Below are positions 33,838 to 35,841 of a stretch of 44,221 nt of DNA, piece by piece (position 1 is the first letter of the stretch; each line of letters begins with the position of its first letter). This DNA is from a virus (lineage: Duplodnaviria; Heunggongvirae; Uroviricota; Caudoviricetes), in IMG/VR virus record IMGVR_UViG_2721755643_000005; one strand, given 5' to 3'. A program made the translations under genes and the position numbers. A model generated the notes under the pieces. It had not been told where the DNA came from, did no database searches, and saw nothing but the letters and a program-made list of their open reading frames with translations.

Positions 33838-35841
33838 TGAGCTTGTTCTGTCCCTCGGGATTGATGACAGGGACTTTACTGCCGGGGAACAGGCAGTACA
33901 TGCTGCCCTTAACCGGCTCACGACGGTGATGGAAGGTGTCGCTGACACATTCAGTCAGGGACAGAAGAAAACCAGTGAATCACTGGAAAAAACCGGAAAA
34001 GATGCTGATAAAACGGCCCGTCGAATGGAAGATGCCGGGAAACGGGCGTCCCGTTTTTTTTCAGGGATCCGTAGCGAGATTCTGGCTCTTGCGGGTGTCA
34101 GTCTGACGCTGGGGGGCTGAAGAACCTGGTAACAGGTTTTGCCCGTGATCTGAACCGTCTGTCCGTGGAATCCGATGCTTTTGGCATGAAGGCCAGAAAT
34201 CTGGACGGATGGTTACGGGCTGCGCGGGCAAATAATGTTGATGAAGGGGAAATGTCTGGGGCATTTTCCCGGCTTGCAAATGCAAAAGCGGCCTTCAGAG
34301 CCGGAAGGTCCTTTGATCCTGTGTTACAGGATTTGTTTCAGGTTGCAGCCAGGGCGGGCATTAGTGTTGATTTAAATACTGACAGCACTGAAGCCATCAT
34401 GCGCAAGCTGGCGGTTATTTTTCCGCGACTGACAAAGTCCGAACAAACTGCCTACGGCAACGCGCTGGGCTTCAGTTATGCCGGACAGCAGTTTCTTGGC
34501 TCCGGTCATGCGCTGAAAGATGTGGACGAATTTACTTCCCGTTCGCAGGTTACGCCGGGGCGTACAGCGCTGGCCCGTAAGCTACGAAAAGAGCTTGTTG
34601 AGCTCGATCAGACCTGGTCCGGCATCGGGATGACGATTAGCACCACGTTGATGCCGTACGCGCTGAAGCTCAGCCACTGGCTGGAGACACTCGGTGACTG
34701 GATGCAGCAACATCCGGAGGAAGTGAACAGGTTTATCACCACATTTCTGAATGACGTTGAGTCAGTGGCCTCCCTGGCGAATAAGGCTGCCGGAGAACTG
34801 GGGGGCTGGCAGAATGTCATTATTACGCTGATCGGGCTGAAAGTGGCGTCATGGGTGCGGGGGCTGACAAAAGCCCTCAGTGGCCCCGGAGGCCTTCTTT
34901 TTGCGATAACGGCGCTTTACCCGGTTGTTGACGGATTACTGACATCCATTGTTGGCAGGGAAAATAAGGACTGGCTGGATTCACATGGTTTTTTCTGGGC
35001 TTCAGACGGGACTTTCTTTTTCAATAAGAAAGAGATGGAGACGTATCAGACAAAACTGGATGCCGGAGAAAAGCCTGGCAACATCACCCGGGCACAATCA
35101 CCCACAGTATGGCAGCAGGGCATGCTGGATACTCAGGCTTCTCAGGCAACCGGGAGGGAAGCAGCCTTCGGTGAATCCTGGCTACAGGGTATGCGTGCGA
35201 CGCAGGAAAAACTCGGTAATGCCATGCAAAACCGCCAGCGACCGACGAAGACCGGGGAAGCCCTGTTAGGCTGGCTGCAACCGAAACTGTCTCAACTGGA
35301 GGAAAAATATAACCTGCCGCCCGGACTGCTGCGCAGCGTTGCGATCACCGAATCCCGTGGTAATCAGTTTGCCGTCTCACCTGCTGGTGCGATGGGACTG
35401 TTTCAGTTCATGCCGAAGACGGCCAGTGAATTTGGTCTGAGGGGGAACGATGCCTTTGATCCCGAAAAAGCCGCTGATGCCGCCGCGAGAAAACTTGGTG
35501 GCCTGATACGTTTTTTTCATGGCGATCTGGCTAAGGCTCTGGCGGCATATAACTGGGGAGAGGGAAATGTTCAGCGTAAGGGACTGGCTGCTGCTCCGGA
35601 GGAGACCCGCAACTATATTCCGCGGGTGCTGGCGAACCTGCCTTATCCGGGTGCGGCAATGGCCATACGGTCGCGCCATCCTGCGCCTGTATCGCAGTCC
35701 ACCGTAACGGAAACCACGCATATCGGGACACTGAATGTCACCACAACGTCGGACAATGTGAAGGGTATTACCGATGACGCACGTCGGCGTATCACGAATT
35801 CGGCGCTTGTGTCGGTTTATTCCAGCGGGGTAACAGGATGA
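33821..35841 (+). CDS. Tail tape measure protein with lytic transglycosylase (SLT) domain; frame broken at a G6 tract (34111-34116)
   Basis: 99-aa N-terminal ORF (33821-34120) and a 558-aa ORF that is open upstream to 34075; a -1 shift at GGGGGG joins them; SLT motifs ITESRGNQF ... GLFQFMP ... AYNWGEGNV. Confidence 0.6.

Follow-up and report, generated by a model that had tools for sequence, protein, structure and literature searches.

SLT-type tape-measure proteins are represented by PHROG 2013, by PHROGs 2276 and 9570, and by the structure 9b45. Within phage tail clusters, a -1 change of frame at a phased X_XXY_YYZ heptamer is typical of the tail chaperones of the lambda G/GT type; the usual spacer between a slippery site and its stimulator is 5 to 9 nt, and RNA polymerase slippage needs roughly 8 to 9 or more A or T. 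Phase-variable homopolymer loci differ in tract length among very close relatives, one length turning the gene ON and another turning it OFF, and their tracts are typically longer than G6 or G7. Pseudogenes with a frameshift in a homopolymer are also found in prophages that are decaying in Shigella and EIEC-type hosts. Frameshifts of this kind in the structural genes of prophages, whether they mark pseudogenes or consensus errors, are well known.

The locus described here, a tail gene interrupted at a run of six Gs, shares traits with each of these systems. It lies in a 44,221-nt stretch of DNA (the window, IMG/VR record IMGVR_UViG_2721755643_000005) that represents a prophage integrated at ttcA. 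Its intR/xisR are of the Rac type, its early region is lambdoid, and its late module is E217-like and of the contractile-tail (myovirus) kind. With the SLT-type tape-measure proteins it shares collinearity over the full length, the Glu-Ser motif and the position of the gene, whereas the window gene is cut after codon 99 by a 1-nt deletion and would be a pseudogene copy. As in the lambda G/GT-type frameshift, a phased heptamer and a -1 change are found within the tail cluster; the difference is that G_GGG_GGC appears to be a by-product of the deletion, is absent from all homologs and has a background-level efficiency. The variation between G6 and G7 among very close relatives, with an open gene in only one state, recalls phase-variable loci, but the tract is short and unconserved, it lies in a structural virion gene without evident switching benefit, and sequencing error is a confounder of the variation. 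A contracted G run, further frameshifts in the same gene and IS insertions in sister copies are likewise traits of decaying Shigella/EIEC prophages, from whose eroded remnants the window differs in that the rest of its 23-kb late module is still intact.

The relevant features, in window coordinates, are as follows.

33209 to 33613, plus strand: tail assembly chaperone gene (phrog_1932, E = 3e-59).
33577 to 33837, plus strand: open -1 frame extension of the chaperone (phrog_3976, E = 8e-32), which takes in a listed 60-aa ORF at 33655 to 33837.
33821 to 34120, plus strand: N-terminal tape-measure fragment, with ATG at 33821, 99 codons and a premature TGA at 34118 to 34120.
34111 to 34116, plus strand: G6 homopolymer, contracted by 1 nt from the G7 that intact orthologs have (from the alignment, the list of differences to the prophage of E. 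coli VL46 and the G counts).
34117 to 35841, plus strand: the rest of the tape-measure gene, residues 100 to 673 and the stop, shifted into the -1 frame with respect to the start codon.
35296 to 35613, plus strand: SLT lytic transglycosylase domain, residues 493 to 598 of the repaired protein (PF01464, E = 8.7e-26).

At the site of interruption the sequence reads ...AGT CTG ACG CTG GGG GGC TGA..., and the 99-aa ORF (33821-34120) ends in ...SLTLGG*. An open -1 frame extends from 34075 to a stop at 35839-35841; the 558-aa ORF at 34165-35841 is this same frame, counted from its first GTG at 34165. Direct reading and translation of the DNA thus upheld the stop, the G6 run and the coordinates given in a preliminary description of the window, and a frame scan together with the PF01464 match did the same for its statement that the -1 frame continues across the G run for 558 codons that include an SLT domain. 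An internal start with a good Shine-Dalgarno sequence is absent ahead of the C-terminal part. With one G inserted, the window encodes 673 aa that match WP_046880349.1 (encoded by the CDS of L001 and L014) at 100% identity, and the 99-aa fragment is identical to residues 1-99 of that protein. The preliminary description had further proposed that either one extra or one missing G would give a single protein of about 670 aa. This holds for the extra G and fails for the missing one, since the frame is fused only by one additional G or by two fewer, and a G5 tract meets stops within about 10 codons. No record matched the 558-aa C-terminal ORF exactly, whether its first residue was taken as V or as M.

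Homology placed the two ORFs in one gene. Residues 1-672 of the repaired protein aligned with positions 1-656 of the 657 in phrog_2013 ('lytic tail protein', E = 8e-246), and the protein also matched the tape-measure PHROGs 2276 and 9570 ('tail length tape measure protein'). The PF01464 match scored 90.2 bits against a cut-off of 21.3, the E511-S512 motif, which contains the catalytic Glu, was invariant in the homolog alignment, and the PDB matches were T7 gp16 and 9b45 ('gp41 Tape measure protein'). A database search recovered 120 full-length homologs of 630-740 aa at 100% query coverage, each of them a single ORF, from prophages of E. coli, Shigella, Salmonella and Serratia. An alignment of 10 homologs was unbroken and strongly conserved over the frameshift point (ILALAGV-x-L-x-L-G-G-L/I-K), where the frame of the window copy is interrupted by the TGA at 34118-34120. 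Because both parts are collinear with single proteins, the split is not explained by chance juxtaposition, and on these sequence comparisons the two ORFs are one frameshifted tape-measure gene.

Gene order in the tail module runs from the sheath (31281; DUF3383/E217 gp31-like) through the tube (32766; E217 gp32-like) and the chaperone (33209) to the tape measure, followed by a Dit-like gene (35838), plug, hub and spike. The chaperone carries a -1 site of its own, a phased T_TTT_TTC heptamer at 33589-33595, 520 nt upstream of the tape-measure G tract. Judged from its sequence and context, this is the canonical programmed -1 frameshift of a tail assembly chaperone and the genuine one of this module. 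With such a chaperone at 33209-33837, the broken gene stands in the tape-measure position.

The length range of the homologs has a counterpart in alignment columns 64-113, near the N terminus, where KTGxDADKxA-like repeat units vary in presence and number among homologs to give 630-740 aa; this variation probably reflects variation in tail length. A nucleotide search of a phage collection gave no match, and the relatives found at the protein level were all distant, namely Klebsiella prophage-derived phages at about 35% identity.

Near-identical prophages carry G7, in 17 copies from 8 complete E. coli genomes and in 9 IMG/VR contigs. A 2.4-kb region of the window was at least 99.7% identical to the 8 complete genomes, with 2402 subject bases against 2401 query bases in every match, and the alignment identifies the extra base of the relatives as the seventh G. 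The E. coli relatives annotate a single 2022-bp CDS ('lytic transglycosylase domain-containing protein'). Relatives with G7 and one 673-aa CDS confirm the earlier proposal that a single tape-measure gene was broken by a frameshift in the G run. Hundreds of contigs carry an intact 673-aa form (for example, 188 have P0137 and 100 have P0138) versus 10-13 contigs with the 99-aa form, and among complete RefSeq E. coli genomes none had G6. The two states of the tract are distinguished by 31-mers that span it, CGCTGGGGGGCTGAAG versus CGCTGGGGGGGCTGAAG. Pattern scans for the tract with 5 to 9 Gs gave 0 matches in GTDB representative genomes and 0 in JGI metagenomes, and a literature search found no described case specific to this tape-measure gene or tract. 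The 8 E. coli genomes with the module hold 1-3 copies of the tape-measure region each, at 17 places in all. SNPs are distributed over these copies as a mosaic, a pattern that suggests that resident prophages have recombined or undergone gene conversion.

The exact 99-aa product was found on 13 other contigs, all with G6, and has RefSeq and Pathogen-Detection-style accessions (WP_077788320.1, UJY29359.1 from Shigella dysenteriae, and EPM6537252.1). One carrier, the S. dysenteriae assembly CP091398.1 (L004), combines G6 with the otherwise private haplotype of the window, which consists of an AAC deletion at 32775, a T at 33502 not seen elsewhere, and 10 more SNP positions up to 40740. The AAC deletion is an in-frame 3-bp repeat contraction at the start of the tail tube gene (147 versus 148 aa); among the full-length tube copies compared it is common only to the window and CP091398.1, and it marks a private sublineage. 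Most of the other G6 carriers are long-read assemblies with mutually inconsistent 1-nt deletions in G or C runs, as expected of uncorrected long-read assemblies. Nine complete-genome carriers were considered as independent confirmation of G6 and rejected as such, given their many sporadic deletions in G or C runs; carriers that were ascertained by searching with the G6 product can lend little independent support.

The preliminary description had left the choice among a homopolymer sequencing error, genuine inactivation and slippage-prone phase variation. Genuine inactivation is the best supported, and we consider it probable, from the sequence comparisons, that a hotspot in this Rac-site prophage, which is decaying, underwent a pseudogenising contraction from G7 to G6. 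Over the 44.2 kb that the window shares with the orthologous prophage of E. coli VL46 (NZ_CM177010.1, 2276519-2320743), the differences are 22 SNPs, one in-frame AAC indel at 32775 and the missing G. Homopolymer runs of at least 6 number 88 in the window, 26 of them at least 7 long and seven of them G6, and only the tract at 34111 differs from VL46; the unchanged runs include C7, T8, A8 and the six other G6 runs. Since none of the 87 other runs differs, the assembly is not generally error-prone. This clean background weighs against an assembly or base-calling artefact, by which the strain would have G7 and an intact 673-aa gene and one G would have been dropped from the consensus, as do the presence of G6 on the same private haplotype in CP091398.1, its presence in L013 (a Logan contig from the independent SRA run SRR34940150, which appears to be short-read) and the database accessions of the 99-aa product. 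We infer that G6 is physically present in the DNA of the strain. An artefact is unlikely on this evidence, and yet it keeps appreciable weight: a single nucleotide is deleted from a tract that would otherwise be the sole G run of at least 7 in 44 kb, the tape measure is the only disrupted late gene, and G6 is missing from all complete RefSeq E. coli genomes. In long-read Shigella assemblies, deletions in G or C runs are frequent and mutually inconsistent, and they also affect the second G run of this gene; IMG/VR contigs from the short-read era (L016, L020 and L023) have G7 where long-read assemblies of the same SNP haplotypes give G6. Assemblies of one IS-bounded remnant disagree in the same manner, with runs at 34111 and 34800 of 6 and 5 in L012, 6 and 6 in L013, and 7 and 6 in L016, so that L013 has G6 without the 34800 deletion of the long-read assembly.

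A functional role of the tract, either as a phase-variable contingency switch or through -1 frameshifting at G_GGG_GGC-UGA to a useful level, is very improbable. The heptamer at 34111-34117 is phased, with GGG and GGC as its codons in the 0 frame, and stands right before the stop; a -1 slip on it would restore the exact wild-type ...LGGLKN.... Downstream, at 34121-34140, an 8-bp hairpin (AGAACCUG-GUAA-CAGGUUUU) begins 3 nt after the heptamer, a short spacer, and the region folds no better than shuffled sequence (z = -1.23, with 22 of 200 shuffles folding as well). In E. coli, -1 frameshifting at GGGGGGC was measured at 0.072% without a stimulator, 0.122% with the IS911 stimulators and 0.262% with the IS3 pseudoknot, against a background of 0.055 +/- 0.031% for constructs with neither motif nor stimulator (PMC4066793). 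By these values the heptamer without a stimulator lies within the background and is not frameshift-prone in the host. The programmed frameshift of the module is already assigned to the T_TTT_TTC of the chaperone, and neither a two-frame layout nor the slippery site is kept in the homologs, all of which are single ORFs. The tract is not conserved in DNA beyond what the protein needs, whereas Leu-Gly-Gly is conserved: the codons at the site are GGG GGG, GGG GGA, GGC GGC, GGC GGA or AGC GGT, with GGG GGA in Salmonella and GGC GGC or AGC GGT in Serratia and others, so that a homopolymer is absent from Serratia-type and more distant Salmonella-type copies. Since the efficiency of the phased heptamer is close to background and the tract is unconserved, ribosomal -1 frameshifting was rejected as a rescue; transcriptional slippage was rejected too, RNA polymerase needing longer A or T runs. 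For a switch speak the occurrence of both G6 and G7 on four SNP backgrounds of the gene and a Salmonella-clade relative with the reverse change, from an in-frame G6 to G7. A reversible tail or virion switch, with G7 ON and G6 OFF in the E. coli/Shigella clade, G6 ON and G7 OFF in the Salmonella clade, and low-level -1 slippage as a trickle in the OFF state, would, if true, explain why both states recur on several haplotypes, but we give it hardly any credence. A tract of G6 or G7 falls below typical phase-variable length, and errors in long reads, together with recombination between multiple copies of the prophage, confound the apparent homoplasy. Taken with the single-ORF homologs and the background-level frameshifting, the unconserved tract leaves the suggestion of slippage-prone phase variation without positive support.

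Under the preferred reading, genuine contraction of the G run, the lesion would have arisen by replication slippage in the Leu-Gly-Gly run, where the loss of one G turns CTG GGG GGG CTG into CTG GGG GGC TGA. The G7 tract is the longest G run in the element and therefore the likeliest site for such slippage. Translation would end after 99 residues, leaving the other 574 codons, including the SLT domain, out of frame. Without a full-length tape measure, assembly of the tail tube and sheath should fail: neither would be built to length, the SLT domain would not be delivered, and this prophage copy by itself would be unable to make infectious virions. Such a loss of tail formation is predicted from what tape-measure proteins are known to do. 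It could be complemented by another, intact copy in the genome; there are E. coli relatives that carry 2-3 copies. The change would then be a neutral or tolerated pseudogenising mutation of a lineage decaying in Shigella/EIEC-type hosts, and not a regulatory device.

For annotation, the 99-aa and 558-aa ORFs are better treated as one frameshifted tape-measure pseudogene (or as a repaired gene, should reads give G7) than as two hypothetical proteins. An otherwise intact-looking Rac-site prophage that is probably unable to build tails also bears on the prediction of inducible or transducing phages in Shigella and EIEC. More generally, the G run of greatest length in a prophage late operon is a hotspot of real mutation as well as of long-read error, and calling genes with such a run present or absent across assemblies therefore needs read-level checks. 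The tape-measure lesion opens no new biological question.

Decay of this prophage lineage extends beyond the G tract. The early region of the window has an IS2 in a DUF977 family gene, a truncated recE (12031-13365 and about 3300-5100 for the two lesions) and a frameshifted hypothetical gene, all shared with VL46; the IS2 and recE lesions are common to RMDEC364 as well, so the early region was already decaying. The other late genes of the window are all intact, and with a 23-kb late module otherwise undamaged the tape-measure lesion would be an early step of decay, unlike the state of the heavily eroded remnants. Shigella sister copies have been cut up by IS1, IS2, IS3-family and IS66 insertions. 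Within the tape-measure gene itself, a second G6 run at 34800-34805 is G5 in L005, L009, L011 and L012; the 332-aa ORF that results from the 34800 contraction was found on 91 contigs, mostly with S. flexneri labels, and other truncations give 188, 195 and 237 aa in S. boydii, S. dysenteriae and E. coli. This is the expected pattern if selection is relaxed on a decaying prophage that contains slippage-prone runs, as the sequences suggest, and the apparent recurrence is in part due to sequencing error and to recombination among 2-3 copies per genome.

In the Salmonella-type clade (79-87% identical), the homologous codons are CTG GGG GGA, an in-frame G6. Within IMG/VR, L052 (1933-1960) has G7 and with it a reciprocal frameshift at the same codons, and the Salmonella-type L046 carries CTGAGGGGA at 1933, a substitution that breaks the G run. 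Elsewhere in the late module, the tail fibre gene differs from VL46 by 3 clustered substitutions (40736-40740 of the window, compared with L014 19741-19745), where the window and most relatives have GGGAGGTATACC and VL46 has a G8 run (GGGGGGGGTACC); the VL46 sequence may reflect an artefact or a patch acquired by recombination. At 18807-19114, upstream of the lysis genes, lies a cluster of four tRNAs, which ARAGORN assigned to Met(CAT), Arg(TCT), Thr(TGT) and Val(TAC) and the first of which is annotated as tRNA-Ile in RefSeq.
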